DNA from: Escherichia coli
GTDB lineage: Bacteria > Pseudomonadota > Gammaproteobacteria > Enterobacterales > Enterobacteriaceae
DNA length: 64,000 nucleotides
Assembly (NCBI RefSeq): GCF_024700885.2
Contig: NZ_CP117016.1
Reading direction: 5' to 3' (one strand)
Positions 9,024 to 59,036 of the stretch are shown piece after piece. The first letter of the stretch is position 1; each line of letters opens with the position of its first letter. A program made the position numbers and the translations under genes. The notes beneath the pieces are model-generated. The model made no database searches, was not told where the DNA came from, and was given only the letters and a program-made list of their open reading frames with translations.

Positions 9024-11455
9024 TCCAGCCCCATCGCCCGCAAATGCTCGGCCACTTTCTCGCTCAACGCCTCAACGGAGGCTTCAAGCGCTAGCAACGG
9101 TTCAGCATAACGCTCTTCCAGCTCCTTTACGCGCGACGCCAGTTGCTGGGTAATACGCTCAATCTCCGCCTTGATCCCTGCCTGCAACGTTGCCAGCCAC
9201 TTATCCTGCACTACCAGCGTTTTAATCGCTGCTTCATCCAGCGTGGGATAATGTTTAAACACCGCCCGATCCAGCGCTTCTTGTGCGGCTTTCAGCGCTT
9301 TTTTCGCACTGGCTTCGGCCTTAATTAGCGCCAGGCAGCGGTTCAGCACTGCCAGCTCATCTGGGCCGGCAGTGGTTTTCTTTAACTGTGCTAGACGGGC
9401 ATTCACCAGCTTTTGCGTCACCTTATCTTTATCGTTCTTCGCCTCGGCCAGCAGATCCTCTTCACCTGCCTGCTCCTCGATGAATTCCACTAGCTGACGA
9501 CTGGCTTCTTCACTGCGCTCCTGCGCGCGGTTCAGCGCATCCAGCAGTTCCGGGAAACAGCGAATTTCCACCAGCGAACGGGGCAGCACATCGGCCTTGT
9601 AGCGCCGTTTGGTAAACTCGAAATCGTGCGTTTCTTTCCAGATGTTTTTGCCATCTTTGCCTTTCACCGGCTGAAGCTCGCGGATTTGCGCGGCGGCTTG
9701 CCAGCCATCCTGCATAATCGCATACACATCGTCTTGCATGACATCAGTCCAGTAATCCATCAGGATCTGGTACACGCTGTATTTGTTCAGCAACTCACTG
9801 TTGGCGTACTGCGCCAATAGCATTTCGCTGATATCGTGGATTAGCGCTTTGGGTTTATCACCTTTGCGAATCTCTTCCAGACTTGCCTCTTTCACCCACG
9901 CTTTAAACGGTAGCAGGCTGCGGGTGGCAAAATCCTTAAACTCCTGATGCGCCAGAATGGTCGGTTTCACCTGTTGCGCGTTCACCTGCGCCCGACAGTA
10001 ACCGGGACGGTCGTCAGCAAACAGCACGTTGCGCAGGGCAGGGAATACCCGCCAGTAATCTTGCAAAGCATCCACATCGCGTGCCGGAATACCGCCCTGT
10101 AAGTGCGCGGTCAGATCGTGTAAATCTTCCGGCTCGCCGCTCTCGATATAGCGAGGAATATTCAGGTTGTAATCATTTCCGGCGATCTCGCTGGAGGGCA
10201 CCATCCGGCTGTAGCCAGGTACCGTTCGCTGATGGTTGAACACGTCCACAATGCGGTGAATATCTCGGCTACGCAGGCGGTTCTTGTTGCCATCTTTGAT
10301 AAAGCCCCGGCTGGCGTCGATCATAAAAATGCCTTTGCGGCTGTGGGCGTGCTCTTTATCAATCACAATGATGCACGCCGGGATGCCGGTGCCGTAAAAC
10401 AGGTTGGCTGGCAAACCAATAACGCCTTTGATATAGCCCTGCTTGATTAGATTTTCACGGATATTCGCTTCGGCGTTACCGCGAAACAGTACGCCGTGGG
10501 GCAGGATCACCGCGCCTTTGCCGGTACTTTTCAGGCTTTTAATGATATGCAACAAAAAAGCATAATCGCCGTTTTTTTCCGGCGGAATACCCCAGCCGAA
10601 GCGTTCAAACGGATCTTTTTTCGGCGTCAGCCCGTTGGTCCAGTTTTTATTGGAAAAAGGCGGGTTCGCCACGGCAAAATCGAAGGCTTTCAGTTTGCCG
10701 TTCGCCTCTTTCCACTGCGGATCGCTCAGCGTATTGCCCTGCCAGATTTTCGCGGTGGCATTGTTATGCAGAATCATGTTCATCCGCGCCAGCGCACTGG
10801 TAGCGTTATCCATCTCCTGGCCGAAAATCGACAGTCCGCGCCGGGCTTCATCATTCACTTTCAACAGCAGCGAACCAGAGCCACAGGTTGGGTCATAAAC
10901 CGTTGCATCTTGCGGAGTATCGGGAGTAATACCAATCACCTTCGCCAGAATACGTGACACCTCCGCTGGAGTGTAAAACTGCCCTTTACTCTTACCGGAT
11001 TCGGTTGCGAAGTGACGCATCAGATATTCATAGGCATCGCCCAGCAGATCGTCGCCTTCGGCCCGGTTGCTGGAGAGATTTAACCCTTCAAAGATACCGA
11101 CAAGCTTGCTCAGGCGGTCAATCATTTCCTTGCCTTTGCCGAGCTTATCTTCGTCGTTAAAGTCGGCTTCGTCGATGACGCCCTTCAGGCCGTTCTCTTC
11201 CGCCAGCTTGTGGATGATTTTGTTGATTTTGTCGCCGATCTCTTTGTCATTTTTCAGCGCAACCATATCGTCAAAGCTGGCTCCTTTGGGTATCACGATC
11301 ATCCCGTAAGGATCGCCTTTATACTTATCGGAAACGTACTTCATAAACAGCAGGGTCAGTACATAGTCTTTGTACTGGCTGGCGTCCATCCCGCCACGCA
11401 GTTCGTCGCAGCTTGCCCACAGGGAAGAATAGAGTTCGGTTTTTTTGATAGCCAT
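9017..11455 (-). CDS. hsdM: Type I restriction-modification methyltransferase subunit (HsdM), long form with ~300-aa C-terminal coiled-coil extension
   Basis: 812 aa; HsdM N-terminal domain (MAIKKTELYSSLWASCDELRG...), AdoMet motif I DPTCGSGSLL and N6-adenine motif IV NPPF; C-terminal third is Ala/Glu/Lys/Leu-rich and predicted helical. Confidence 0.85.
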   Translation of the reverse strand: MAIKKTELYSSLWASCDELRGGMDASQYKDYVLTLLFMKYVSDKYKGDPYGMIVIPKGASFDDMVALKNDKEIGDKINKIIHKLAEENGLKGVIDEADFNDEDKLGKGKEMIDRLSKLVGIFEGLNLSSNRAEGDDLLGDAYEYLMRHFATESGKSKGQFYTPAEVSRILAKVIGITPDTPQDATVYDPTCGSGSLLLKVNDEARRGLSIFGQEMDNATSALARMNMILHNNATAKIWQGNTLSDPQWKEANGKLKAFDFAVANPPFSNKNWTNGLTPKKDPFERFGWGIPPEKNGDYAFLLHIIKSLKSTGKGAVILPHGVLFRGNAEANIRENLIKQGYIKGVIGLPANLFYGTGIPACIIVIDKEHAHSRKGIFMIDASRGFIKDGNKNRLRSRDIHRIVDVFNHQRTVPGYSRMVPSSEIAGNDYNLNIPRYIESGEPEDLHDLTAHLQGGIPARDVDALQDYWRVFPALRNVLFADDRPGYCRAQVNAQQVKPTILAHQEFKDFATRSLLPFKAWVKEASLEEIRKGDKPKALIHDISEMLLAQYANSELLNKYSVYQILMDYWTDVMQDDVYAIMQDGWQAAAQIRELQPVKGKDGKNIWKETHDFEFTKRRYKADVLPRSLVEIRCFPELLDALNRAQERSEEASRQLVEFIEEQAGEEDLLAEAKNDKDKVTQKLVNARLAQLKKTTAGPDELAVLNRCLALIKAEASAKKALKAAQEALDRAVFKHYPTLDEAAIKTLVVQDKWLATLQAGIKAEIERITQQLASRVKELEERYAEPLLALEASVEALSEKVAEHLRAMGLEW

Positions 11456-12015: not shown

Positions 12016-12270
12016 ATGGATTTCACCGCCTTGGTCGACAACTGCGCCCACTTCGTCGAATCCCTGATAGAAACCGAGGATCCCGCGCTGTGGCTTACCC
12101 TCTGCGGGCGACATTGTACTGCTGCAACCCACGCCGACCTCATCCCGCCGCATTTTACCGAAAGCCTGCTCAGTGATACTCTCCCCACCATGCCAGATCA
12201 GGTTATTTCTGAACCTGATTCTTGTGCGAATATTGCCTCGTGCGGGCTGTGCATCATCGCCGCTCTTTGA
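12016..12270 (+). CDS. Hypothetical small Cys-containing ORF (84 aa)
   Basis: ATG at 12016 preceded by TATAAT at 12004-12009; product MDFTALVDNCAHFVESL...PDSCANIASCGLCIIAAL; no family recognised; coding status uncertain. Confidence 0.25.
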   Translation: MDFTALVDNCAHFVESLIETEDPALWLTLCGRHCTAATHADLIPPHFTESLLSDTLPTMPDQVISEPDSCANIASCGLCIIAAL

Positions 12271-12732
12271 TAAGAGGCGTCAAAGGTAAGGGGCGTAGCG
12301 TTATTAGTTTGGGCTATACACTTGCGCTACAACTCTTCAAATAGCTATATATCAACAATATTTAGCCATAAACCGTCTACTTCCGTCTCAATTATACTCA
12401 AATTAAGGCATGCGGCATCTTTGTGACACATTTGTTTTTTTGATACAGGTTAGAGTTGACCTGCTCTCCGTTGATTAACTCACATTGTTGTTAACCACGT
12501 CTACTTTTAGCACGACACTGATGCGTTAACTGAGCGAATGGTCTGCTTTGAGCGAGGAACGGACATTACTAACAGCATTCTGTGTGAATCACCAGGGAGC
12601 AGGTCAGCGCCACTACTCTATATAATCGCTAACGATGACAAGTATAATTATATAAGTCTTTGCCCTTAGCTTTTGGATAAAATTGTTGAAGTTTCACGAA
12701 AATAATGATAAACAAAAACAGTAGCAATAATT

Positions 12733-13677
12733 ATGGATTTAATTATGGAATGGAGATTTTTAGGTTCTCTATCAGAGGCCAGGAAATCTGGCTGTAGCGG
12801 AGTTTATCTTATTGTCCATAAAGGACTTTTCAGTCGTGTGGTTTACGTTGGGGTAAGTTGTAATGTAGGTAGAAGGATAACCGAACATTACGACGGTTAT
12901 CTTAGAGGAAATCGAACAATTTACGACGCTGGTCACGACGAAGACGTTTATCGCTTCATGTCAGCTTATAAAATTCATAACCACACAAAATACTATCAAG
13001 CCTTGGCGAATGATTATAAGATATGGGCATCTACCACAATGTATTCTGATTTGCCGAAAAACATGCTAGCAAAAAGCCAAACCTTTGATACTGATTGGCA
13101 GAGCATTGCATTAGAAAAATATATTCCTCAACTGGTAGTATGGGCCCTTCCAATGGCAAAGTACTGTTATTCAAATGCAAGCAGGATTGAAAGTGTAATC
13201 CAATCAAAGCTCATTAAATCTTTTGATTTGAGAGGTTTTTTTAATATAAAGCAATTAAGCATATTGGGTAAAATTGAATATCCCTATATGGAAAAGGTCA
13301 AAGTTTTCATTATTAACACACCTGATTTAGACCCGGCATCCCAGCTTATTTTTAGCAATCTATATAACAAAAAAACTGATAACAACTTCTGTAAAGAGTT
13401 CCGTTCACAATTTAAAAGCGAGATTTTTCAGAGGGAAAGTGAAACTCAGAGAAAGCGAACTATCAGGGAGCATAAGGTATCTCTTTATGAAAATTATGGC
13501 AAGCCTTGGACTTTAAAGGAAATGGAAAAACTTAGAGTCATGCTTGTCGATTTTGATTTGTCCCCGATAGAAATATCTGAGTATCTAGGAAGAGAGCCGC
13601 GCTCTATATCTAAAAAAATAAGCGAAAATGATAAAGTTACTAATTATAAATGGCGAGAGAGCGTCGGCTGGTTGTGA
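12733..13677 (+). CDS. Hypothetical protein with GIY-YIG-like nuclease N-terminus and HTH-like C-terminus, in an AT-rich segment
   Basis: 314 aa; N-terminus GVYLIVHKGLFSRVVYVGVSCNVGRRITEH resembles the GIY...YIG...R...H core of GIY-YIG nucleases such as I-TevI; C-terminal ...WTLKEMEKLRVMLVDFDLSPIEISEYLGREPRSISKKI resembles a helix-turn-helix; flanked by ~400 bp of AT-rich non-coding DNA. Confidence 0.55.
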   Translation: MDLIMEWRFLGSLSEARKSGCSGVYLIVHKGLFSRVVYVGVSCNVGRRITEHYDGYLRGNRTIYDAGHDEDVYRFMSAYKIHNHTKYYQALANDYKIWASTTMYSDLPKNMLAKSQTFDTDWQSIALEKYIPQLVVWALPMAKYCYSNASRIESVIQSKLIKSFDLRGFFNIKQLSILGKIEYPYMEKVKVFIINTPDLDPASQLIFSNLYNKKTDNNFCKEFRSQFKSEIFQRESETQRKRTIREHKVSLYENYGKPWTLKEMEKLRVMLVDFDLSPIEISEYLGREPRSISKKISENDKVTNYKWRESVGWL

Positions 13678-13892
13678 CGTTACGTTTTGATTGAAATAAC
13701 CCCCATTTTGCAAAGTCCGCTCTTGGCACAGAGCGGACTGTCAGATGAGGTTTAGTTCTGTACTAATGAGCCGATACAAATTAGCTGCATATACCTGCAT
13801 TCCAAATAATTTTAGGCAGATATTATCTCCGTGAGTCCCCCGCCACTTTTCCGGTGCGCGGGGTTTTGTCTTTTTTCACCGGGAATACATGT

Positions 13893-14765
13893 ATGAATCC
13901 GTCTGATGCCATTGAGGCAATTGAAAAACCGCTCTCCTCCCTGCCTTACTCACTTTCCCGTCACATCCAGGAACATCTGCGCAAACTCACCAGTCACGAA
14001 CCCGTGATTGGCATTATGGGTAAAAGCGGGGCCGGTAAATCCTCACTCTGTAATGCACTGTTTCAGGGGGAGGTCACCCCGGTCAGTGATGTTCACGCCG
14101 GCACCCGGGAAGTGCGGCGCTTCCGTCTGAGTGGCCACGGTCACAGCATGATTATCACTGACCTGCCCGGGGTGGGCGAGAGCCGGGACAGGGATGCAGA
14201 GTATGAAGCCCTGTACCGTGACATTCTGCCTGAACTTGACCTGGTACTGTGGCTGATTAAAGCCGATGACCGTGCCCTGTCTGTGGATGAGTATTTCTGG
14301 CGACACATACTGCACCGGGGACATCAGCAGGTGCTGTTTGTGGTGACGCAGGCCGACAAAACGGAGCCCTGCCATGAATGGGATATGGCCGGCATTCAGC
14401 CTTCTCCCGCACAGGCACAGAACATTCGGGAGAAAACGGAGGCGGTATTCCGTCTGTTCCGGCCCGTACATCCGGTTGTTGCCGTATCGGCCCGCACCGG
14501 CTGGGAACTGGATACGCTGGTCAGTGCGCTAATGACAGCACTTCCCGACCATGCCGCCAGTCCCCTGATGACCCGCCTGCAGGACGAGCTGCGCACGGAA
14601 TCTGTCCGCGCTCAGGCCCGTGAACAGTTTACCGGTGCGGTGGACCGGATATTTGACACGGCGGAGAGCGTCTGTGTTGCCTCTGTTGCCCGTACGGTTC
14701 TGCGTGCCGTCCGTGACACGGTGGTCTCTGTTGCCCGCGCTGTATGGAACTGGATTTTCTTCTGA
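13893..14765 (+). CDS. yeeP: YeeP/YkfA/YfjP-family GTPase (CP4-type island gene)
   Basis: P-loop GIMGKSGAGKSS, G3 DLPG and TQADK G4 motifs; start placed at MNPSDAIEAIEK (13893) rather than the ORF-track start 13854. Confidence 0.85.
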   Translation: MNPSDAIEAIEKPLSSLPYSLSRHIQEHLRKLTSHEPVIGIMGKSGAGKSSLCNALFQGEVTPVSDVHAGTREVRRFRLSGHGHSMIITDLPGVGESRDRDAEYEALYRDILPELDLVLWLIKADDRALSVDEYFWRHILHRGHQQVLFVVTQADKTEPCHEWDMAGIQPSPAQAQNIREKTEAVFRLFRPVHPVVAVSARTGWELDTLVSALMTALPDHAASPLMTRLQDELRTESVRAQAREQFTGAVDRIFDTAESVCVASVARTVLRAVRDTVVSVARAVWNWIFF

Positions 14766-14879
14766 ACACTCTGCCAGGGGAAATGCCTGATTACATTGCG
14801 TTAACCAACTGAAAACATGATACAAACACTCCATCCCCCTCCTGTTTCTCTTGCGTGACTGCCCTGCTGTTAATAGAAT

Positions 14880-14925
14880 AAAACGATCGATAAAACAGGT
14901 ATCGATCGTTACCATCGATCGTTTA
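14880..14925 (+). promoter_or_regulatory. agn43 (flu) phase-variation switch: three closely spaced GATC Dam sites in the OxyR operator
   Basis: GATC at 14885-14888, 14904-14907 and 14917-14920, ~210 bp upstream of the Ag43 start, matching the known Dam/OxyR switch architecture. Confidence 0.75.
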
Positions 14926-15137
14926 TAGTGGTTAATGGTCTGCGAAAAGGCAGCTGAATCTCTTCATCATGCAGAACGGAATTGCACACAACGGACTGAT
15001 ACTTCTCTGGCGGATGAGAGAGGGGAAGCATTTATGTCCGGGAAAAACCACTTTATCTGACCATGCTGTTTTGTACCTGCCGGTATCCACATTTGTGGGT
15101 ACCGGCTTTTTTATTCACCCTCTGTAAGGAAAAGCTG

Positions 15138-17984
15138 ATGAAACGACATCTGAACACCAGCTACAGGCTGGTATGGAATCACATTACGGGCACCCTGGTG
15201 GTGGCTTCCGAACTGGCGCGCTCACGGGGAAAACGCACCGGTGTGGCGATTGCGCTGTCTCTTGCTGCTGTCACATCAGTTCCGGCACTGGCTGCTGACA
15301 CGGTTGTACAGGCGGGAGAAACCGTGAGCGGCGGAACACTGACAAATCATGACAACCAGATTGTTCTCGGTACGGCCAACGGAATGACCATCAGTACCGG
15401 TCTGGAGTATGGGCCGGATAACGAGGCCAATACCGGCGGGCAATGGATACAAAATGGCGGTATCGCCAACAACACTACTGTCACCGGTGGTGGTCTTCAG
15501 AGAGTGAATGCCGGAGGAAGCGTTTCAGACACGGTTATCAGTGCCGGAGGCGGACAGAGCCTTCAGGGGCAGGCAGTGAATACCACTCTGAACGGCGGTG
15601 AGCAGTGGGTACATGAAGGCGGGATTGCAACGGGTACCGTCATTAATGAGAAGGGCTGGCAGGCCGTCAAATCCGGCGCAATGGCAACCGACACGGTTGT
15701 GAATACCGGCGCGGAAGGGGGACCAGATGCAGAAAATGGTGATACCGGGCAGTTTGTTCGCGGAAATGCCGTACGTACCACCATCAATAAAAATGGTCGT
15801 CAGATTGTGGCTGTTGAAGGAACAGCAAATACCACTGTGGTTTATGCCGGCGGCGACCAGACGGTACACGGGCATGCGCTGGATACCACACTGAATGGCG
15901 GTTACCAGTATGTGCACAACGGAGGCACAGCCTCTGACACGGTTGTAAACAGTGACGGCTGGCAGATTGTCAAGGAAGGTGGTCTGGCGGATTTCACCAC
16001 CGTTAACCAGAAAGGCAAACTGCAGGTGAACGCCGGTGGTACAGCCACGAATGTCACCCTGAAACAGGGTGGAGCACTGGTCACCAGTACTGCGGCAACG
16101 GTTCTTGGCAGCAACCGTCTGGGCAATTTCACGGTGGAAAACGGTAAGGCTGACGGCGTTGTTCTGGAGTCCGGCGGTCGCCTGGATGTACTGGAAGGCC
16201 ATTCAGCGCAGAAAACACGGGTGGATGACGGCGGAACCCTGGCAGTGTCTGCCGGTGGTAAGGCAACAGATGTCACCATGACATCCGGTAGTGCCCTGAT
16301 TGCAGACAGTGGTGCCACTGTTGAGGGGACCAATGCCAGCGGTAAGTTCAGTATTGATGGCACATCCGGTCAGGCCAGCGGACTGCTGCTGGAAAATGGC
16401 GGCAGCTTTACGGTTAATGCCGGGGGACAGGCCAGCAACACCACTGTCGGACATCGTGGAACACTGATGCTGGCTGCCGGGGGAAGTCTGAGTGGCAGAA
16501 CACAGCTCAGTAAAGGCGCCAGCATGGTACTGAATGGTGATGTGGTCAGTACCGGCGATATTGTTAACGCAGGGGAGATTTACTTTGACAATCAGACAAC
16601 ACCGGATGCCGTACTGAGCCGTGCTGTTGCAAAAGGCGACTCCCCGGTAACGTTCCATAAACTGACAACCAGTAACCTCACCGGTCAGGGTGGCACCATC
16701 AATATGCGTGTTCGCCTTGATGGCAGCAATGCCTCTGACCAGCTGGTGATTAATGGTGGTCAGGCAACCGGCAAAACCTGGCTTGCGTTTACAAATGTCG
16801 GAAACAGCAACCTCGGGGTGGCAACCTCCGGACAGGGTATCCGGGTTGTGGATGCACAGAATGGCGCCACCACAGAAGAAGGTGCGTTTGCCCTGAGTCG
16901 CCCGCTTCAGGCCGGCGCCTTTAACTACACCCTGAACCGTGACAGCGATGAAGACTGGTACCTGCGCAGTGAAAATGCTTATCGTGCTGAAGTCCCCCTG
17001 TATACATCCATGCTGACACAGGCAATGGACTATGACCGGATTCTGGCAGGCTCCCGCAGCCATCAGACCGGTGTAAACGGTGAAAATAACAGCGTCCGTC
17101 TCAGCATTCAGGGCGGTCATCTCGGTCACGATAACAACGGCGGTATTGCCCGTGGAGCCACGCCGGAAAGCAGCGGCAGCTATGGCTTCGTCCGTCTGGA
17201 GGGTGACCTGCTCAGAACAGAGGTTGCCGGTATGTCTCTGACGACAGGGGTGTATGGTGCTGCAGGCCATTCTTCCGTTGATGTTAAGGATGATGACGGT
17301 TCCCGCGCCGGCACGGTCCGGGATGATGCCGGCAGCCTGGGCGGATACCTGAATCTGACACACACGTCCTCCGGCCTGTGGGCTGACATTGTGGCACAGG
17401 GAACCCGCCACAGCATGAAAGCGTCATCGGACAATAACGACTTCCGCGCCCGGGGCTGGGGCTGGCTGGGCTCACTGGAAACCGGTCTGCCCTTCAGTAT
17501 CACTGACAACCTGATGCTGGAGCCACAACTGCAGTACACCTGGCAGGGGCTCTCCCTGGATGACGGCCAGGATAACGCCGGTTATGTGAAGTTCGGGCAT
17601 GGCAGTACACAACATGTGCGTGCCGGCTTCCGTCTGGGCAGCCACAACGATATGACCTTTGGCGAAGGCACCTCATCCCGTGACACTCTGCGCGACAGTG
17701 CAAAACACCGTGTGAGTGAACTGCCGGTGAACTGGTGGGTACAGCCTTCTGTTATCCGCACTTTCAGCTCCCGGGGTGACATGAGCATGGGTACAGCCGC
17801 AGCCGGCAGTAACATGACGTTCTCACCCTCACAGAATGGCACATCACTGGACCTGCAGGCCGGACTGGAAGCCCGTGTCCGGGAAAATATCACCCTGGGC
17901 GTTCAGGCCGGTTATGCCCACAGCATCAACGGCAGCAGCGCTGAAGGTTATAGCAGTCAGGCCACGCTGAATGTGACCTTCTGA
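15138..17984 (+). CDS. flu: Antigen 43 self-associating autotransporter
   Basis: Signal peptide MKRHLNTSYRLVWNHITGTLVVASELARSRGKRTGVAIALSLAAVTSVPALA, repetitive passenger (…GGTA.NTT.N.GG.Q.V…) and C-terminal beta-barrel ending ...ATLNVTF. Confidence 0.9.
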   Translation: MKRHLNTSYRLVWNHITGTLVVASELARSRGKRTGVAIALSLAAVTSVPALAADTVVQAGETVSGGTLTNHDNQIVLGTANGMTISTGLEYGPDNEANTGGQWIQNGGIANNTTVTGGGLQRVNAGGSVSDTVISAGGGQSLQGQAVNTTLNGGEQWVHEGGIATGTVINEKGWQAVKSGAMATDTVVNTGAEGGPDAENGDTGQFVRGNAVRTTINKNGRQIVAVEGTANTTVVYAGGDQTVHGHALDTTLNGGYQYVHNGGTASDTVVNSDGWQIVKEGGLADFTTVNQKGKLQVNAGGTATNVTLKQGGALVTSTAATVLGSNRLGNFTVENGKADGVVLESGGRLDVLEGHSAQKTRVDDGGTLAVSAGGKATDVTMTSGSALIADSGATVEGTNASGKFSIDGTSGQASGLLLENGGSFTVNAGGQASNTTVGHRGTLMLAAGGSLSGRTQLSKGASMVLNGDVVSTGDIVNAGEIYFDNQTTPDAVLSRAVAKGDSPVTFHKLTTSNLTGQGGTINMRVRLDGSNASDQLVINGGQATGKTWLAFTNVGNSNLGVATSGQGIRVVDAQNGATTEEGAFALSRPLQAGAFNYTLNRDSDEDWYLRSENAYRAEVPLYTSMLTQAMDYDRILAGSRSHQTGVNGENNSVRLSIQGGHLGHDNNGGIARGATPESSGSYGFVRLEGDLLRTEVAGMSLTTGVYGAAGHSSVDVKDDDGSRAGTVRDDAGSLGGYLNLTHTSSGLWADIVAQGTRHSMKASSDNNDFRARGWGWLGSLETGLPFSITDNLMLEPQLQYTWQGLSLDDGQDNAGYVKFGHGSTQHVRAGFRLGSHNDMTFGEGTSSRDTLRDSAKHRVSELPVNWWVQPSVIRTFSSRGDMSMGTAAAGSNMTFSPSQNGTSLDLQAGLEARVRENITLGVQAGYAHSINGSSAEGYSSQATLNVTF

Positions 17985-18098
17985 TAATTCTGCATTGCCT
18001 CTCTGTGGTCCCGGTCATCATGACCGGGACCCGGACGGGGGAAAACGTTTCAGTGCCACATTCACTGGCATTCACAATAACATGATATTCATCACGGA

Positions 18099-20621
18099 GT
18101 GACTATGTTACAGATAGTCGGCGCGCTGATTCTGCTGATCGCAGGATTTGCCATTCTTCGCCTTTTGTTCAGAGCATTAACCAGCACAGCGTCTGCGCTG
18201 GCAGGGTTCGTATTGCTGTGTCTGTTCGGCCCGGCTTTACTGGCTGGCTATATCACTGAACGCATAACCCGGTTATTCCATATTCGCTGGCTGGCAGGCG
18301 TATTTCTGACGATTGCCGGAATGATTATCAGCTTCATGTGGGGACTTGATGGTAAACATATCGCACTGGAGGCTCATACTTTTGACTCTGTAAAATTTAT
18401 TCTGACCACCGCTCTCGCCGCTGGTCTGCTGGCTCTTCCCGTGCAGATAAGAACCATTCAGCAGAACGGGCTCACACCTGAAGATATCAGCAAGGAAATT
18501 AACGGGTATTACTGCTGTTTTTATACTGCTTTTTTCCTTATGGCGTGTTCTGCATACGCACCATTGATCGCATTGCAGTTCGATATTTCACCCTCACTGA
18601 TGTGGTGGGGCGGGTTGTTGTACTGGCTGGCTGCATTAGTGGCGCTGCTATGGGCGGCCAGCCAGATCCAGGCGCTGAAAAGACTGACCAGTGCCATCCG
18701 CCAGACACTGGAAGAACAACCGGTGCTCAACAGTAAATCGTGGCTGAGCAGTTTGCAAAACGATTACAGCCTTCCTGAAACGCTGACGGAGCGCATCTGG
18801 CTGACACTCATTTCACAACGGATTTCCCGGGGAGAACTGAGGGAATTTGAACTGGCAGACGGAAACTGGCTACTGGACAATGCCTGGTATGAAAGAAACA
18901 TGGCGGGTTTCAACGAAAAGCTGAGAGAGAGCCTGTCATTTACCCCTGATGAACTGAAAACCCTCTTCCGGAACCGCCTGAATTTATCACCGGAAGCGAA
19001 TGACGATTTTCTCGATCGTTGCCTGGACGGCGGTGACTGGTACCCCTTTTCAGAAGGCCGCCGTTTTGTATCATTCCACCACGTGGATGAGCTTCGTATC
19101 TGTGCCTCCTGCGGGCTGACAGAAGTACATCATGCCCCGGAAAATCATAAGCCGGATCCGGAATGGTACTGCTCCTCTCTTTGTCGCGAAACAGAAACAC
19201 TGTGTCAGGACATTTATGAACGTTCTTACACCGGTTTTATTTCCGATGCAACGGCGAATGGTCTGATTCTCATGAAACTGCCGGAAACCTGGAGTACAAA
19301 TGAGAAAATGTTTGCTTCCGGAGGGCAGGGACATGGGTTTGCCGCTGAACGGGGAAACCATATTGTCGACAGAGTCCGTCTGAAAAACGCACGGATCCTC
19401 GGTGATAATAATGCCAGAAATGGAGCAGACAGACTGGTCAGCGGAACAGAAATCCAGACGAAATATTGTTCAACTGCAGCCCGTAGCGTCGGTGCGGCAT
19501 TCGACGGACAAAACGGACAGTATCGTTACATGGGAAATCATGGTCCCATGCAACTGGAAGTCCCCCGTGATCAGTATGCCGGCGCTGTGGAAACCATGAA
19601 GAATAAGATCCGCGAAGGTAAAGTACCCGGTGTAACCGATCCCGCAGAAGCGTCCCGGCTGATTCGTCGGGGACATCTGACTTATACCCAGGCCCGTAAT
19701 ATCACCCGGTTCGGGACCATCGAATCGGTCACTTATGATATTGCCGAGGGGTCGGTTGTCAGTCTGGCGGCCGGAGGGATCAGTTTTGCCCTGACGGCAT
19801 CGGTCTTCTGGCTCAGCACCGGCGATCGCGATGCTGCCCTGCAGACAGCTGCTGTCCAGGCAGGAAAAACCTTCACCCGCACACTGGCTGTCTACGTCAC
19901 AACCCAGCAACTTCACCGGCTCAGTGTTGTTCAGGGTATGCTGAAGCATATTGATTTTTCGACGGCCAGCCCGACTGTCCGGCAGGCGCTTCAGAAGGGG
20001 ACCGGTGCAGGAAATATCAGTGCCCTGAACAAAGTGATGAAGGGTACGCTGGTGACATCTCTGGCACTGGTAGCTGTCACAACCGGCCCTGACATGATCA
20101 AAATGTTGCGGGGACGGATCTCCGGTGCGCAGTTCATCAGGAATCTTGCCGTGGCATCTTCCGGTGTGGCAGGTGGTGCTGTCGGGTCAGTGGCGGGCGG
20201 GATATTGTTCAGTCCACTGGGACCATTTGGTGCACTGACAGGGCGTGTGGTTGGCGGTGTTCTGGGGGGAATGATTGCCTCCGCTGTATCAGGAAAAATT
20301 GCCGGAGCGCTGGTTGAAGAAGATCGCGTCAAAATTCTGGCAATGATTCAGGAGCAGGTGACATGGCTTGCCGGCAGTTTCCTGCTGACCGGACATGAGA
20401 TTGAAAATCTGAACGAGAATCTGGCCCGTGTTATCGATCAGAATGCTCTGGAGATCATTTTCGCCGCCGGTATACAACAACGGGCCGCGACCAATATGTT
20501 AATCAAACCACTGGTGGTCAGTATCATCAGGCAACGCCCCGTCATGGAATATGATGCATCCCATCTCGGCAATATGGTTAACCGACTGGAAGAAGCATTA
20601 CCCCCGGAGTTACCGGCATAA
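18099..20621 (+). CDS. yeeR: YeeR-like inner-membrane protein, full length
   Basis: 840 aa; N-terminal hydrophobic helices, internal Cys cluster (CASCGL...CSSLC), C-terminal Gly-rich hydrophobic region; positioned after flu as in CP4-44. Confidence 0.65.
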   Translation: MTMLQIVGALILLIAGFAILRLLFRALTSTASALAGFVLLCLFGPALLAGYITERITRLFHIRWLAGVFLTIAGMIISFMWGLDGKHIALEAHTFDSVKFILTTALAAGLLALPVQIRTIQQNGLTPEDISKEINGYYCCFYTAFFLMACSAYAPLIALQFDISPSLMWWGGLLYWLAALVALLWAASQIQALKRLTSAIRQTLEEQPVLNSKSWLSSLQNDYSLPETLTERIWLTLISQRISRGELREFELADGNWLLDNAWYERNMAGFNEKLRESLSFTPDELKTLFRNRLNLSPEANDDFLDRCLDGGDWYPFSEGRRFVSFHHVDELRICASCGLTEVHHAPENHKPDPEWYCSSLCRETETLCQDIYERSYTGFISDATANGLILMKLPETWSTNEKMFASGGQGHGFAAERGNHIVDRVRLKNARILGDNNARNGADRLVSGTEIQTKYCSTAARSVGAAFDGQNGQYRYMGNHGPMQLEVPRDQYAGAVETMKNKIREGKVPGVTDPAEASRLIRRGHLTYTQARNITRFGTIESVTYDIAEGSVVSLAAGGISFALTASVFWLSTGDRDAALQTAAVQAGKTFTRTLAVYVTTQQLHRLSVVQGMLKHIDFSTASPTVRQALQKGTGAGNISALNKVMKGTLVTSLALVAVTTGPDMIKMLRGRISGAQFIRNLAVASSGVAGGAVGSVAGGILFSPLGPFGALTGRVVGGVLGGMIASAVSGKIAGALVEEDRVKILAMIQEQVTWLAGSFLLTGHEIENLNENLARVIDQNALEIIFAAGIQQRAATNMLIKPLVVSIIRQRPVMEYDASHLGNMVNRLEEALPPELPA

Positions 20622-20696: not shown

Positions 20697-21152
20697 ATGA
20701 TTCACCTGTTCAAAACCTGCATGATTACCGCCTTCATTCTGGGGTTAACGTGGTCTGCCCCACTCCGGGCACAGGATCAACGTTACATCAGTATACGCAA
20801 TACAGATACGATATGGCTCCCGGGAAATATTTGTGCCTACCAGTTCCGGCTGGATAATGGCGGAAACGATGAAGGATTTGGCCCCCTCACCATCACTCTG
20901 CAACTCAAAGACAAATATGGTCAGACGCTGGTGACCAGAAAAATGGAAACGGAAGCCTTTGGTGACAGTAATGCCACGCGAACCACAGACGCATTTATGG
21001 AAACGGAGTGCGTGGAAAATGTCGCCACAACCGAAATCATTAAAGCAACTGAAGAAAGTAACGGCCATCGTGTCAGTCTGCCGTTATCGGTTTTTGATCC
21101 CCAGGACTACCATCCACTGCTGATTACCGTTTCCGGAAAAAATGTTAACTGA
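20697..21152 (+). CDS. Hypothetical secreted protein (signal peptide)
   Basis: 151 aa with N-terminal hydrophobic signal-like segment ...ITAFILGLTWSAPLRAQ; no family recognised. Confidence 0.55.
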   Translation: MIHLFKTCMITAFILGLTWSAPLRAQDQRYISIRNTDTIWLPGNICAYQFRLDNGGNDEGFGPLTITLQLKDKYGQTLVTRKMETEAFGDSNATRTTDAFMETECVENVATTEIIKATEESNGHRVSLPLSVFDPQDYHPLLITVSGKNVN

Positions 21153-21483
21153 TCCCTGAAGTCAGTTTCATGCTTCAGCCTCTGCCACAACGTATGGCAG
21201 AGGCTATTTATCAGGAGAAACCAGATATGCCGGGTTACACACAGAGTATGTCCTGGCTGAAGGATCTTTCTCATACGGGCAGACGGTGGCTGTCACAACA
21301 GCTTACCTTAATGTGCTTATTGAAGATGACCAGGTGCGCACTTCCGGCTGGTTATCCGCAACGCGGAAGGTCAGCGACGCTGGCGCTGCCGGAATACTGA
21401 ACCCTGTGCCGGAAAGCAGCTTAATGCGTGGCTCGCCAGTGAAGGGCTTCTCAGACAATAAACGTCATTGATTTCGTCCATCA

Positions 21484-21515
21484 GGCCGCGTCTTCTCCGG
21501 GAGACGCGGCTTTTT
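21484..21515 (+). terminator. Rho-independent terminator-like hairpin
   Basis: GCCGCGTCT ... AGACGCGGC stem followed by TTTTTT (21510-21515). Confidence 0.45.
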
Positions 21516-21561
21516 TCATTTATTACACCAGTAAATCTTAACCACCGATAAGGAGCAAAGT

Positions 21562-22383
21562 ATGCGATTAGCCAGTCGTTTTGGTTATGCTGCAAACCAG
21601 ATACGCCGTGACCGTCCACTGACACATGAAGAGCTGATGCACCATGTGCCGGGGATTTTCGGGGAAGATAAACACACGTCCCGAAGCCAGAACTATACGT
21701 ACATCCCCACCATCACCGTGCTGGAAAGTCTGCAGCGGGAAGGCTTCCAGCCATTCTTCGCCTGCCAGACCCGTGTGCGCGACCCGGGCCGTCGGGGATA
21801 CACAAAACACATGCTGCGTCTGCGGCGGGCCGGAGAGATAAACGGAGAACATGTCCCTGAAATTATTCTGCTCAACTCTCATGACGGTACCTCCAGCTAC
21901 CAGATGCTGCCGGGTTACTTCAGGTTCGTCTGCCAGAACGGGTGCGTCTGTGGTCAGTCTCTGGGGGAAGTGCGTGTTCCGCACCGGGGAAATGTAGTGG
22001 AGAAAGTTATCGAAGGGGCTTACGAGGTGGTGGGGGTTTTTGACCGGATAGAGGAGAAGCGTGATGCCATGCAGTCGCTGGTCCTGCCGCCACCGGCACG
22101 CCAGGCGCTGGCACAGGCGGCACTGACTTACCGTTATGGTGACGAACATCAGCCCGTCACCACCGCCGACATTCTGACGCCACGACGCCGGGAGGATTAC
22201 GGAAAGGACCTGTGGAGTGCTTATCAGACCATCCAGGAGAATATGCTGAAAGGGGGGATTTCCGGTCGCAGTGCCAGAGGAAAACGTATCCACACCCGTG
22301 CCATTCACAGCATCGACACCGACATTAAGCTCAACCGCGCATTGTGGGTGATGGCTGAAACGCTGCTGGAGAGTATGCGCTGA
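21562..22383 (+). CDS. DUF932-family protein (YfjQ/YafZ-like)
   Basis: 273 aa; position and sequence character match the DUF932 genes of CP4-type islands. Confidence 0.7.
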   Translation: MRLASRFGYAANQIRRDRPLTHEELMHHVPGIFGEDKHTSRSQNYTYIPTITVLESLQREGFQPFFACQTRVRDPGRRGYTKHMLRLRRAGEINGEHVPEIILLNSHDGTSSYQMLPGYFRFVCQNGCVCGQSLGEVRVPHRGNVVEKVIEGAYEVVGVFDRIEEKRDAMQSLVLPPPARQALAQAALTYRYGDEHQPVTTADILTPRRREDYGKDLWSAYQTIQENMLKGGISGRSARGKRIHTRAIHSIDTDIKLNRALWVMAETLLESMR

Positions 22384-22474
22384 TGCCGTTTCCCTGAAAG
22401 CGCAGTTCTGACTCACGTCTGTCCCTTCCCCCGGGATTTCTTCCATTCATTTACTTTTTATAAGGAATAATCTC

Positions 22475-22960
22475 ATGACAACCGTCTTGCATAATTCCAC
22501 CACTCCTTCTGTTTCCGTAACCGCTGCATCAGGGAATGACCAGCCTCAGCTGGTTGCCACCATAGTCCCTGATGAACAGCGCATCAGCTTCTGGCCGCAG
22601 CACTTTGGCCTCATTCCACAGTGGGTGGCCCTGGAGCCCCGTGTCTTCGGCTGGATGGACCGTCTGTGTGAAGACTACTGCGGTGGTATCTGGAATCTGT
22701 ACACCCTGAACAACGGCGGGGCATTTATGGCACCCGAACCGGATGACGATGATGACGAAACATGGGTACTGTTCAATGCCATGAACGGTAACCGCGCTGA
22801 AATGAGCCCGGAAGCCGCCGGCATTGCTGCCTGTCTGATGACGTACAGCCATCATGCCTGTCGTACGGAGTGTTATGCCATGACGGTCCATTATTACCGG
22901 TTGCGGGATTACGCCCTGCAGCATCCGGAATGCAGCGCCATTATGCGCATCATCGACTGA
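22475..22960 (+). CDS. Anti-restriction protein (ArdB/KlcA family, YfjX/YafX-like)
   Basis: 161 aa; acidic DDDDDE stretch and ...FGWMDRLCEDYCGGIWNLYTLNNGGAFMAP... typical of this family; position upstream of the radC-like gene. Confidence 0.75.
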   Translation: MTTVLHNSTTPSVSVTAASGNDQPQLVATIVPDEQRISFWPQHFGLIPQWVALEPRVFGWMDRLCEDYCGGIWNLYTLNNGGAFMAPEPDDDDDETWVLFNAMNGNRAEMSPEAAGIAACLMTYSHHACRTECYAMTVHYYRLRDYALQHPECSAIMRIID

Positions 22961-23452
22961 ATGGAGAGAAGCACAATGCAACAGCTTTCCTTTCTGCCCG
23001 GAGAGATGACGCCCGGCGAGCGCAGTCTCATTCTGCGGGCCCTGAAAACTCTGGACCGCCATCTTCATGAACCCGGCGTGGCCTTCACCTCCACCCGTGC
23101 GGCACGGGAATGGCTGATTCTGAACATGGCGGGACTGGAGCGTGAAGAATTCCGGGTGCTGTATCTGAATAACCAGAATCAACTGATTGCCGGTGAAACC
23201 CTCTTCACCGGCACCATCAACCGCACGGAAGTCCATCCCCGGGAAGTGATTAAACGCGCCCTGTACCACAATGCCGCTGCCGTGGTGCTGGCGCACAATC
23301 ACCCGTCCGGTGAAGTCACACCCAGCAAGGCAGACCGCCTTATCACGGAACGTCTGGTACAGGCACTGGGCCTGGTGGATATCCGGGTGCCGGACCATCT
23401 GATAGTCGGTGGCAACCAGGTTTTCTCCTTTGCCGAACATGGTCTGCTTTAA
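22961..23452 (+). CDS. yeeS: RadC-like JAB-domain protein (YeeS/YfjY/YkfG family)
   Basis: JAMM motif HNHPSGEVTPSKAD; alternative start at 22976 (MQQLSFLPGE). Confidence 0.85.
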   Translation: MERSTMQQLSFLPGEMTPGERSLILRALKTLDRHLHEPGVAFTSTRAAREWLILNMAGLEREEFRVLYLNNQNQLIAGETLFTGTINRTEVHPREVIKRALYHNAAAVVLAHNHPSGEVTPSKADRLITERLVQALGLVDIRVPDHLIVGGNQVFSFAEHGLL

Positions 23453-23514
23453 CCCGTCACAACCACATCACACCTGTTTTCACTTTTATCTTCTGTCTTC
23501 AGAGGTATCACATC

Positions 23515-23736
23515 ATGAGAATCATCACCCGTGGTGAAGCCATGCGTATTCACCAACAGCATCCTGCATCCCGTCTTTTTCCGTTCTGTACCGGTAAGTA
23601 TCGCTGGCACGGCAGTGCTGAAGCGTATACTGGTCGTGAAGTGCAGGATATTCCCGGCGTTCTTGCCGTGTTTGCAGAACGCCGTAAGGACAGTTTTGGC
23701 CCGTATGTCCGGCTGATGAGTGTCACCCTGAACTGA
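23515..23736 (+). CDS. yeeT: YeeT-family small protein (DUF987)
   Basis: 73 aa; position between radC-like gene and cbeA. Confidence 0.7.
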   Translation: MRIITRGEAMRIHQQHPASRLFPFCTGKYRWHGSAEAYTGREVQDIPGVLAVFAERRKDSFGPYVRLMSVTLN

Positions 23737-23898
23737 TGTTCCGTCACCCGGGAAACGAGTACGACCAGATGACCTCAGACGCCGCTGTGGATGAGGCCAT
23801 TCTCATCAATGCATACATCTTCACCGAAACCGGTCAGCGCGCCGGCTGACCTGTCATCGTTAAACCATTCTTAACCACTTTTCAGAGAGGATTTTATC

Positions 23899-24273
23899 GT
23901 GTCAGACAAACTCTCCGGGATAACTCATCCCGATGACAATCACGACCGCCCCTGGTGGGGGCTTCCCTGCACAGTGAGGCCCTGTTTTGGCGCTCGTCTG
24001 GTGCAAGAGGGTAACCGCCTGCATTACCTTGCCGACCGCGCCGGTATCAGAGGCCGCTTCAGCGACGCAGATGCATACCATCTGGACCAGGCCTTTCCGC
24101 TGCTGATGAAACAACTGGAACTCATGCTCACCAGCGGTGAACTGAATCCCCGATATCAGCATACCGTCACGCTGTATGCAAAAGGGCTGACCTGCGAAGC
24201 CGACACCCTCGGCTCCTGTGGTTACGTTTATCTGGCTGTTTATCCGACACCAGCACCCGCAACCACCTCATAA
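23899..24273 (+). CDS. cbeA: CbeA (YeeU) type IV antitoxin
   Basis: 124 aa, ...[34 protein letters not shown]...; immediately upstream of cbtA. Confidence 0.85.
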
Positions 24274-24319
24274 CCCCGAAGCTCTCACCTTTAGCACTAC
24301 CAGTTACAGAGAACTTAAG

Positions 24320-24694
24320 ATGAAAACATTATCCGACACACATGTACGGGAGGTATCTCGCTGCCCGTCTCCCGTCACCATCTGGCAGACACTGCTCATC
24401 CGACTGCTGGACCAGCATTATGGCCTCACACTGAATGACACACCGTTTGCCGATGAACGTGTGATTGAGCAGCATATTGAGGCAGGCATTTCACTGTGTG
24501 ATGCAGTTAATTTTCTCGTGGAAAAATACGCGCTGGTGCGTACCGACCAGCCGGGATTCAGCACCTGTCCCCGCTCTCAGTTAATAAACAGTATTGATAT
24601 CCTCCGGGCTCGCCGGGCGACCGGCCTGATGACCCGCGACAATTACAGAACGGTAAATAACATTACCCTGGGTAAGTATCCGGAGGCGAAATGA
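24320..24694 (+). CDS. cbtA: CbtA (YeeV) type IV toxin (cytoskeleton-targeting)
   Basis: 124 aa [26 protein letters not shown]...; ATG at 24320 preferred over the ORF-track start 24218. Confidence 0.85.
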
Positions 24695-25182
24695 TGAAAC
24701 TGGCCCTGACACTGGAAGCCGACAGCGTTAACGTACAGGCACTGAACATGGGGCGCATTGTCGTTGACGTCGATGGTATTGAGCTCGCTGAACTGATTAA
24801 CATGGTCTGCGATAACGGCTACTCCCTTCGTGTTGTTGATGAATCTGACCAGACCTCAGCAGAATGCACGCCACCATTTGCTACCCTTACCGGCATACGC
24901 TGCAGTACCGCACATATCACGGAAACGGACAACGCCTGGTTGTACTCGCTGTCACACCAGACCAGTGACTTCGGTGAATCAGAATGGATTCATTTTACAG
25001 GTAGCGGATATCTGTTACGTACCGATGCGTGGTCATACCCGGTTCTGCGGCTTAAACGCCTGGGGCTGTCAAAAACGTTCCGTCGTCTGGTCGTCACACT
25101 CATCCGGCGTTATGGCGTCAGTCTCATTCATCTGGATGCCAGCGCTGAATGCCTGCCGGGTTTACCCACTTTCGACTGGTAA
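24691..25182 (+). CDS. yeeW: YeeW-family protein
   Basis: 163 aa, start overlaps the cbtA stop by 4 nt. Confidence 0.65.
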
Positions 25183-25193
25183 CCAGGAACAAC

Positions 25194-25391
25194 ATGAAAT
25201 CATTAACCACGGAAACAGCGCTGGATATTCTGATTGCGTGGCTGCAGGACAATATCGACTGCGGATCGGGAATTATCTTTGACAACGATGAGGATAAAAC
25301 GGATTCAGCAGCACTGTTGCCCTGTATCGAACAGGCCCGGGAGGATGTCCGTACCCTGCGTCATCTGCAGCTTCTGCACCAGAACCGGTGA
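25194..25391 (+). CDS. Hypothetical small protein (65 aa)
   Basis: MKSLTTETALDILIAWLQDN...; start placed at internal Met of ORF-track ORF 25149-25391. Confidence 0.45.
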   Translation: MKSLTTETALDILIAWLQDNIDCGSGIIFDNDEDKTDSAALLPCIEQAREDVRTLRHLQLLHQNR

Positions 25392-26467: not shown

Positions 26468-26555
26468 TGGCGGTGAGGGGGGGATTCGAACCCCCGATAC
26501 GTTGCCGTATACACACTTTCCAGGCGTGCTCCTTCAGCCACTCGGACACCTCACC
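26468..26555 (-). tRNA. serX: tRNA-Ser (anticodon GGA), serX-like
   Basis: Reverse complement reads GGTGAGGTGTCCGAGTGGCTGAAGGAGCACGCCTGGAAAGTGTG...GGGGGTTCGAATCCCCCCCTCACCGCCA: long variable arm, T-loop GGTTCGAATCC, CCA end, GGA anticodon. Confidence 0.95.
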
Positions 26556-38129: not shown

Positions 38130-42312
<4,183 letters not shown>

Positions 42313-43168: not shown

Positions 43169-44395
43169 TCAGTTCGATACCTGGGGTATTCGACGACGAC
43201 GTAGACTGTTCCATGAATAGACTGCGTTGAATAATACTACGCCAGCGGTGACGAGAAATACCGCTCTGAAACCGTAGTTCGCTGAAATCGCGGCTCCCAT
43301 CAATGGTCCGGTAACGTTGCCAATATCACGAAACGATTGGTTATAGCTGAAGATACGCCCGGCGATCTGGTTGCTCGAGTTATAAACTAACAGTGTCTGT
43401 ACGGCGGGGAGTAGTGCACCATCAGCGGCACCGAGCAAAAAACGTAAAATCCCAAGTTGCAATGGCGTCTGAACGTAAGACATTGGGATCAACAGCAGTA
43501 CAGAAAAGATCAGCGCCGTAATCAGGATCTTTTCGGGGCCGATTCGATCGCCAAGTTTGCCGAGTCGTGGTGCACTCAGCAGAGCAGCTACGCCTGGCAC
43601 CGAGGCGATCATGCCACTGATAAAGGCGACGTTACTGACGTTACCCGCCAGTTCGCGGACATACAGCGTCAGAATGGGGGCAATTGAGCCCGTTGCCACC
43701 TGGATGATTAACGTGGTGACAAACAGGCTGAGTACCAGTTTCGGGTTTTTAAGTGATGTCACCACTTCACGCATGTGCAGCATCTCTTTTTTGCTGACCG
43801 GCTGGAATTTTTCTCTGATGCAAAACAGGGTGACGAAAAAGCAGAGTATGAGCACACTGGCGGTAATAAAGAATACCGGACGTAAGCCGTAGCTATCGGC
43901 GAGCAGGCCGCCAGCCATTGGGCCGAGCAACGCACCGCTAACGCCGCCTGTGGAAAGCGTCCCCAGCGCCCAGCCGCTTTTATTACGCGGTACTTGTGTG
44001 GCGATAAGAGCATTAGCGTTGGGGACAAATCCGCCAAGTAACCCAAGAAGCGCCCGCAGGATCAAAAACTGCCAGATATTTTGTGCCAGCCCCATCAACA
44101 CCATCACGATGCCCATGCCGAGGGCAGAGCGTAATAGCATGAGTTTGCGGCCTTTACGGTCGGCGAGTCCACCCCAAAACGGTGAGGCGATGGCCGAAAA
44201 TAAAAATGTAATGCTGAAGACAATACCGGACCACATATTCAAGGCGGAGTGGCCCGTAACGCCAAGCTGCTCAACGTAGAGGGGTAAGAAGGGCATTACC
44301 AGGCTGAAGGCGGCACCCGTAAGAAAACAGCCTAGCCAGGCGACGATCAGGTTTCGTTTCCAGTTTATAGGGGTGTCATTTTCACAGGGTGACAT
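43169..44395 (-). CDS. mdtG: MFS multidrug efflux transporter MdtG
   Basis: 408-aa polytopic MFS protein; conserved position. Confidence 0.9.
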
Positions 44396-58321: not shown

Positions 58322-58738
58322 TCAGATCGTAATCTTTTTACCGCCGCGATGGGTTGTTGAGGTCTGACCGTTCGCTCCATATAGCGTCGGTTCCTGATGC
58401 GGTTTCAACATTTCCAGCGCCTGTTGATTGCGCTCAATCTGTCCTTCCAGTAACCAGCCGTTATGTTGATTCATTTGGCGTAGTTGCTGCGTTTTCACAG
58501 TAATTTCCTGCCAGCGTTGACTAATATCAACGCTATTTGCTGCATTGGGTTCTTTCCTGCGTAACTGTTCGAGGTAATCCAGCGTCGCCAGCAGAGAGCT
58601 TTTTTGTTCTGTAATCCATTGCAACTGGCTGCCGTTGATCTGCCCCATAGAGAGATGTTGCTGCTCTTGATCCATTACCGTTTTGAGATCGTTAAGCACA
58701 GCGGACATCTGGTCGAGGATCTCTGCAAGACGCGTCAT
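58322..58738 (-). CDS. flgN: Flagellar export chaperone FlgN
   Basis: 138 aa. Confidence 0.9.
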   Translation of the reverse strand: MTRLAEILDQMSAVLNDLKTVMDQEQQHLSMGQINGSQLQWITEQKSSLLATLDYLEQLRRKEPNAANSVDISQRWQEITVKTQQLRQMNQHNGWLLEGQIERNQQALEMLKPHQEPTLYGANGQTSTTHRGGKKITI

Positions 58739-58742
58739 ACGA

Positions 58743-59036
58743 TCAGTTACTCTGCAAGTCTTGCTGCGCTTCGTTGATCAGCGCATCGGCAATTTTGCCG
58801 GTGTCCATTTTTAGTTCACCGTTACGAATCGCCAGTTTTAACGCTTCGACACGTTCAAGATTGATATCACTGCTGCCGGGTTGCATCAGTTTTGCTTGCG
58901 CGTCGCTTAACGTCACACTGGTGCTGGTGGAGGCGGTTGTTTTTGCCGCCCGGGTGTTCGTTACCGGCGCGTCAATGGTTTCGCGCGGTTGAACGGTGCT
59001 TACGGGCTTCAGAGGCGAAGTGCGATCAATACTCAT
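58743..59036 (-). CDS. flgM: Anti-sigma-28 factor FlgM
   Basis: 97 aa. Confidence 0.9.

Follow-up and report, generated by a model that had tools for sequence, protein, structure and literature searches.

An agn43-type three-GATC phase-variation switch in the leader of an Ag43/Cah-family gene of Escherichia coli

The segment 14880–14925 of the window (the whole 64,000-nt stretch of E. coli DNA analysed here) carries three GATC sites in the leader of an Ag43-family gene. With high confidence we read it as the canonical epigenetic phase-variation switch of the agn43 type, and as far as the sequence shows it is in working order. This is the textbook agn43 system, which was known before, and the finding is correct but ordinary. 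The elements, their register, their conservation, the Rfam match and the gene identities were computed here, and the competition between OxyR and Dam, the repression and the co-transcription come from the literature on K-12 and UPEC. From these we infer the actual switching, OxyR binding and methylation states in this strain.

GATC sites, promoter and predicted OxyR half-sites

GATC-I is located at 14885–14888, GATC-II at 14904–14907 and GATC-III at 14917–14920. The total span is 36 bp, and the start-to-start spacing is 19 bp between GATC-I and GATC-II and 13 bp between GATC-II and GATC-III. The sites lie 253, 234 and 221 nt upstream of the Ag43 start codon (ATG at 15138), within the 372-bp gap between a GTPase gene (13893–14765) and this ATG. 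The sequence-only reading had reported three GATCs at 14885, 14904 and 14917 in about 36 bp of the Ag43 leader, and both the coordinates and the gene assignment are correct. A mechanical minus-strand ORF (14529–14915, 128 aa), which passes over the switch and is antisense to the GTPase gene at its 3′ end, was discarded as being without support.

The whole window contains 234 GATCs, about the count found in shuffled sequences. Of 2000 dinucleotide shuffles of the 64-kb window, 1159 (58%) had one or more groups of three GATCs in a span of 36 bp. The GATC cluster by itself is statistically unremarkable, and the case rests on position and homology. A chance grouping of GATCs, unconnected to Ag43 regulation, would agree with these shuffles and with a second real cluster of this kind, which lies in a coding ORF (39210–39228). 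Against it, the three sites align base for base with K-12, they are invariant in the 13 sequences compared, and they are the sole GATCs from 12196 to 18137, about 5.9 kb of purged backbone; the nearest others are more than 2.7 kb upstream and more than 3.2 kb downstream. Counting alone is insufficient to decide the matter. Because of the homology, the conservation and the local emptiness, the chance grouping is rejected, and we give it practically no weight.

The second triplet, at 39210, 39219 and 39228, has sites 9 bp apart and is located within a 517-aa ORF (38223–39776), presumably opgG/mdoG from its position after mdoC. The GATCs of the range 39210–39231 fall in the codons for E-D-L-D-D-R-Y-D-L (Asp-Leu and Asp-Arg codons), and this is an example of a chance-type cluster. 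Four GATCs are also found in 63 bp (43487–43549) inside the minus-strand ORF 43169–44395, and five in 108 bp (58637–58744) around the minus-strand ORF 58322–58738, in the flgN-flgM region according to gene order.

The −10 hexamer is TAGAAT (14874–14879, plus strand; 5/6). The same hexamer is present in K-12 and in 10 of 11 window-type alleles, and the remaining allele has CAGAAT. The putative −35 hexamer is TTGCGT (14851–14856, plus strand), located 17 bp 5′ of the −10 hexamer. It agrees with TTGACA at 3/6 positions, and the K-12 counterpart is TTGTCC. The spacer between the two hexamers (14857–14873) is the most variable segment among the alleles (38% of positions). The generic consensus promoter scan called no promoter at the switch, TTGCGT being below the scan threshold. 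The promoter assignment therefore rests on the K-12 alignment.

As for the transcription start, Wallecha et al. reportedly placed the +1 of agn43 in 2002 at the G of the upstream GATC, which corresponds to the G of GATC-I as the probable start here. With its first position at 14883, 2 nt ahead of GATC-I, the Rfam IS102 match gives independent support for a start at this place. According to 5′ RACE in EC958 (ST131), the agn43 5′ end is located 228 bp before the start codon (PMC4807369). On the window leader this end maps to about 14910, between GATC-II and GATC-III and not at GATC-I. The RACE end may be a processed end. Transcription probably starts at or beside GATC-I, and the RACE end at about 14910 disagrees with this for the present allele type.

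OxyR sites were scanned with the consensus ATAGnTnnnAnCTAT (Toledano), using 10 scored positions per half-site and a score out of 20 for the 22-bp register; the predictions are at the motif level only. Two half-sites are predicted, both with a score of 8/10. Half-site 1, ATAGAATAAAACGAT (14873–14887), overlaps the −10 hexamer towards one end and GATC-I at the other. Half-site 2, ATCGTTACCATCGAT (14905–14919), starts 32 bp after half-site 1, and GATC-II and GATC-III form its two ends. The two K-12 half-sites correspond in relative position and likewise start 32 bp from each other, and the 15-mer of half-site 1 is present at the equivalent K-12 place (position 1333 of L001, the K-12-type agn43 locus). 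The variation of half-site 2 among alleles is confined to its positions 7–9 (14911–14913), which correspond to the unconstrained 'nnn' of the consensus. The claim of an intact Dam/OxyR switch architecture is thus borne out: the 19/13 GATCs, TAGAAT, the two OxyR half-sites and an intact Ag43-family gene are all found in the K-12 register.

The I–II spacer (14889–14902) is GATAAAACAGGTAT in the window and AATATCTATTTTAT in K-12. Seven of the 14 bases differ, and the central CTAT is absent. The score in the canonical 22-bp OxyR register is 10/20 for the window and 14/20 for K-12. Judging from the sequence, the divergent spacer may alter the OxyR affinity and the switching rates relative to K-12. 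As Citrobacter resembles K-12 at this spacer, the window type appears to be the derived form.

These differences bear on whether this copy is an idle relic, in which the weak −35 hexamer and the altered I–II spacer leave the gene constitutively off, constitutively on, or under the leader terminator alone. The −35 match of just 3/6, the empty promoter scan and the low score of the central OxyR register are in line with such a loss. The same −35 and spacer type is, however, found in the ST131 and O157 alleles, and no other intergenic segment is as conserved as the switch. In EC958, deletion/mutation of oxyR raised agn43 transcription 121-fold and irmA transcription 12.9-fold (PMC4807369). The window leader is 99.5% identical in one O25b:H4-ST131 genome, and with the EC958 data this allele type thus has published support for OxyR repression. 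We consider an idle relic very improbable and retain the working switch as the preferred reading.

Conservation among alleles and comparison with known systems

By megablast, the intergenic region was detected in 4017 of 5426 complete E. coli genomes; a single genome has up to seven matched places, and these total 6405. Alleles were taken over the range of identity: ST131 cah, O126:H45, two of O157:H7, long agn43 alleles, short Ag43/Cah alleles and the K-12 type. The MAFFT pairwise alignment misplaced the GATC block, and the K-12 register was established by ungapped manual alignment and position counts. In the K-12-type agn43 (L001), GATC-I, GATC-II and GATC-III are located at 1345, 1364 and 1377. 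The window sites align with them base for base, and the spacing is the same. All three GATCs and the 19/13 spacing are kept in 12 of the 12 other leader-bearing alleles, and GATC-II and GATC-III, like the spacing, are invariant in 13/13 sequences when the window is included. Promoters with three GATCs at similar spacing have been described for both agn43 allelic groups (PMC2808357).

Among the 11 window-type alleles, four of the 46 positions of 14880–14925 are variable (14903 and 14911–14913). Position 14903 is directly 5′ of GATC-II. The variability elsewhere is 19–20% in the upstream region and in the mid-leader. The switch is the least variable intergenic part among the window-type alleles.

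Two rearranged copies were observed. In PigCaeca_2 (E. coli; L013, 1–443), the Ag43/Cah leader is replaced 5′ of the 3′ arm of the terminator, and the GATC triplet is absent. As copies without the triplet exist, the term 'intact' is meaningful for the window copy. In an E. coli-like contig binned as Collinsella (L021, oriented, about position 590), the switch is kept and a deletion extends from the terminator stem (15085) to position 25019 of the window.

The closest known system is agn43 (flu) of K-12, with which the window shares the 19/13 GATCs, the block AATAGAATAAAACGATC with the −10 hexamer and GATC-I, the block TATCGATCGTT...ATCGATCG, both 8/10 half-sites, the terminator and RBS (63/67), the YeeP-type GTPase upstream and the Ag43-family gene downstream. 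The window differs from K-12 at the centre of the II–III spacer (ACC vs TTA), at the −35 hexamer and at half of the I–II spacer positions (7/14). The leader is 253 nt in the window vs 222 nt in K-12, and the passenger is shorter in the window (948 aa vs 1039 aa for the protein, 73.7% identity). In addition, the window has a full-length yeeR and irmA, whereas these are truncated or lost in K-12 (PMC4807369).

The agn43-yeeR-irmA loci of UPEC (CFT073 PAI-serX and EC958) share with the window the leader type, the switch sequence, the gene order and the tRNA-Ser(gga)/ghrA site. The published 5′ end of EC958 (−228) is, unlike the start proposed here, off GATC-I. The cah locus of O157:H7 has the same leader type, about 90–91% identical, and the same switch sequence, whereas dynamin, RdcB and patatin genes are located downstream of it instead of yeeR-irmA.

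More distant systems share only parts of the arrangement. In gtr/opvAB of Salmonella, an OxyR half-site ATCGnTnnnAnCGAT lies within GATC...GATC 13 bp apart, and methylation stops OxyR binding, but the GATCs number four, arranged as two pairs, and the OxyR sites, which lie upstream of the promoter, are alternative sites for activation and repression (PMC2909390). The window has one putative repressor site, from −10 to about +36, with three GATCs, and it does not belong with gtr/opvAB. The Lrp/Dam system of pap is likewise a heritable contest of Dam with a DNA-binding regulator. That system depends on a pair of GATC boxes separated by 102 bp, on Lrp sites and on a PapI-like protein (PMC2909390), and the window architecture does not match it.

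Leader RNA, downstream genes and proposed mechanism

The Ag43/Cah-family autotransporter adhesin gene (15138–17984, plus strand) encodes 948 aa. It is intact and belongs to the short allele group. The protein matches the NCBIfam equivalog NF033177 'Ag43/Cah family autotransporter adhesin' with 1984.6 bits against a cut-off of 1200 over positions 1–948 of 948, and the Pfam domains ESPR, AIDA, AC_1 and Autotransporter were detected in the ORF. The amino-acid identity is 88.8% to O157 Cah and 73.7% to K-12 Ag43. The gene begins with the ATG at 15138, downstream of AAGGA (15126–15130), and not at 15063, where the mechanical ORF starts.

A homologue of the IS102/IsrC leader RNA (Rfam RF00124) extends from 14883 to 15119 on the plus strand, with 72.3 bits against a gathering threshold of 46, E = 4e-12 and model positions 1–206 of 206. 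The IS102 RNA of RF00124 is the isrC leader of K-12. According to the terminator scan, an intrinsic terminator is located in the leader at 15079–15112 (plus strand), with a 12-bp stem (15079–15106), a 4-nt loop and T6. Its fold has −23.5 kcal/mol (z = −6.0), and it is located 19 nt before the RBS. In the terminator–RBS block (15071–15137), 63 of 67 positions are the same as in K-12, and the mid-leader has diverged from K-12 past megablast detection. Since the leader ends in a strong terminator, the promoter gated by the switch would by default yield a leader RNA of about 235 nt, and Ag43 would need read-through. On these sequence features, the switch is predicted to gate a leader-derived small RNA as well. 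In the passage of PMC5389530 that cites Wallecha 2014, the expression of flu is described as controlled by antitermination at IsrC.

The leader also offers a different explanation for the conserved sites. The CGATCG palindromes could be kept mainly for the 5′ stem-loops of the IS102/IsrC leader, with Dam and OxyR being secondary. In the Rfam IS102 consensus, the GATC-II arm pairs with the GATC-III arm. The first 41 nt of the leader RNA fold with −11.1 kcal/mol (z = −2.1), and the variable positions 14911–14913 coincide with the loop of the 5′ hairpin. Because the conserved palindromes also make 5′ RNA hairpins, the conservation pattern alone is without power to split constraint at the DNA level from constraint at the RNA level. 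The favoured hairpin, however, changes with the allele type: site I pairs with site III in the window, and site II with site III in K-12. The GATC tetramers and the distances between them nevertheless do not vary. The three-GATC block also occurs in Citrobacter without the IS102 leader, and K-12 genetics credits DNA methylation (PMC2909390, PMC4872104, PMC13337833). A primary RNA role is, in our estimate, most unlikely, and the GATCs are discussed below as sites of the Dam/OxyR switch.

Over 22 kb, the window and the E. coli MLI114 chromosome are 100% identical. Upstream of the regulatory region, a YeeP-type GTPase gene (13893–14765, plus strand) was identified by Pfam MMR_HSR1 and annotation, and a GTPase gene is the upstream neighbour in every allele examined. 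Downstream of Ag43, the probable second gene of the operon is a yeeR-like gene (18105–20621, plus strand), annotated as a hypothetical protein in MLI114 and as 'YeeR family protein' in a 99.8%-identical genome. The probable third gene is of the irmA family (20697–21152, plus strand) and is annotated as 'IrmA family protein' in MLI114. A terminator-like hairpin with a T run (21483–21512, plus strand), found by the consensus scan only, is a possible end of the transcription unit. Past the operon, the backbone is of the CP4 type (DUF932, antirestriction, JAB/RadC, DUF987, YeeU and CbtA), and the island ends at tRNA-Ser(gga) (26468–26555), adjoining ghrA.

In UPEC, agn43-yeeR-irmA is a co-transcribed, OxyR-repressed operon, with PAI-CFT073-serX and EC958 as examples (PMC4807369). 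By analogy, the switch probably governs Ag43, the yeeR-like gene and irmA together. IrmA, a secreted interleukin-receptor mimic, is probably phase variable alongside Ag43. The sequence-only reading of a switch is supported by the present analysis, and its account was incomplete in two respects: the IS102/IsrC leader with its terminator and the probable control of yeeR and irmA had both been omitted.

The following mechanism is proposed. dam and oxyR are core E. coli genes, and both are located outside the window. A sigma-70 promoter (TAGAAT with a weak −35 hexamer) would start transcription at or next to GATC-I. OxyR would recognize 14873–14887 and 14905–14919, with all three GATCs inside, and would lie across the −10 hexamer and the start site. 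In the heritable OFF state, the GATCs would be unmethylated, and bound OxyR would block RNA polymerase and shield the sites from Dam. In the heritable ON state, Dam would methylate the sites first in the post-replication window, OxyR would be excluded, and transcription would follow. Each replication would reopen the competition of Dam and OxyR. The mechanism has been described in the literature (PMC2909390, PMC3764049, PMC4872104, PMC13337833). Transcripts would then meet the terminator at 15079–15112 and yield the IS102/IsrC-like RNA of about 235 nt, and read-through alone would reach Ag43, and very probably the yeeR-like and irmA genes too.

For annotators, it follows that this Ag43 copy is to be treated as phase variable. 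Expression, aggregation and biofilm phenotypes of the strain would depend on the colony picked, and the putative immune-modulating IrmA and the IS102/IsrC RNA would probably be switched together with Ag43.

GATC depletion of the backbone and related switches in other species

The understanding of the mechanism is unchanged by this copy. Possible added value lies only in the GATC-less backbone and in the reuse of the switch with other cargo in Citrobacter.

The pattern CGATC-N12-ATCGATCG-N5-ATCGATCG was scanned over species-representative genomes, and five matches were obtained. Citrobacter braakii and C. amalonaticus have a homologous 19/13 three-GATC switch including the TAATAGAAT block, and the −10 block is unchanged. 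The Citrobacter loci are L019 5108–5145 (minus strand), L022 941–978 (plus strand) and L018 7175–7212 (minus strand). The C. braakii switch is part of the same backbone of CP4 type, preceded by the GTPase gene and followed by two small secreted proteins (154 and 157 aa). Ag43 is not there, and the IS102 terminator leader is absent. The two cargo proteins showed no similarity to IrmA (E = 0.86 and 5.2) and no NCBIfam matches. The C. amalonaticus locus ends about 360 bp past the switch, and the downstream genes are outside it. In C. werkmanii, a 19/13 GATC triplet precedes a 191-aa membrane protein, and its surroundings are unrelated. The E. coli-like contig with the deletion described above is a further match. 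A match in a Verrucomicrobia contig looks like chance and was set aside.

Around the switch, the island backbone is devoid of GATC. In 12200–14884, 14921–18136 and 21267–25263 (about 9.9 kb), no GATC is found vs 32.6 (about 33) expected, and GATC is the most under-represented tetramer in these stretches (z = −5.7). The GTPase gene, the entire Ag43 ORF and the run of genes DUF905 to cbtA fall in these stretches. The GATC content is normal in the core chromosome, with 152 vs 172 expected, and in the yeeR-irmA insert, with 20 vs 16 expected. No earlier reports of this GATC desert were found in the literature searched.

The depletion was also examined at the level of the gene. Synonymous-codon shuffles of the Ag43 ORF contain a mean of 6.2 GATCs, and only 0.02% of the shuffles have none, as is observed. 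The ORF is GATC-free in five alleles that are 74–98% identical (6–9 expected each). Zero GATCs were counted in K-12 agn43 (8.6 expected), O157 cah (6.4), agn43 of strain 5283 (8.6) and the OZ040669 Ag43 allele (6.1). The control autotransporter genes YpjA and AIDA-I have normal GATC counts.

It might be supposed that the purge is kept by selection that isolates the switch from neighbouring Dam/SeqA targets, and that the switch is a portable module, which also drives the unrelated small secreted proteins of Citrobacter. We hold this to be rather unlikely. The CP4-57 backbone, in which the switch is absent, is partly depleted of GATC. GATC is still scarce, though less completely so, in the backbone of an Enterobacter plasmid that also lacks the switch and carries an Ag43-like gene of 52% identity. 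Insulation of the switch as the cause of the desert is weakened by these two backbones and by the normal GATC content of the yeeR insert. As switch-less backbones are also depleted, and the insert directly after Ag43 is normal, the purge looks mainly like a legacy of backbone-wide avoidance, independent of the switch. Against this background the three remaining GATCs are conspicuous.

Further features were noted at the left side of the window from the annotation of the identical genome. In 2120–11455 (minus strand), a type I restriction-modification operon has the gene order hsdM, hsdS, darT, darG, hsdR, with the darT-darG DNA ADP-ribosylation toxin-antitoxin pair inside it, and an M48 metallopeptidase gene comes next. 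At the left end (213–1640), a gene fragment of an autotransporter beta-barrel is flanked by IS5 and IS600 remnants.
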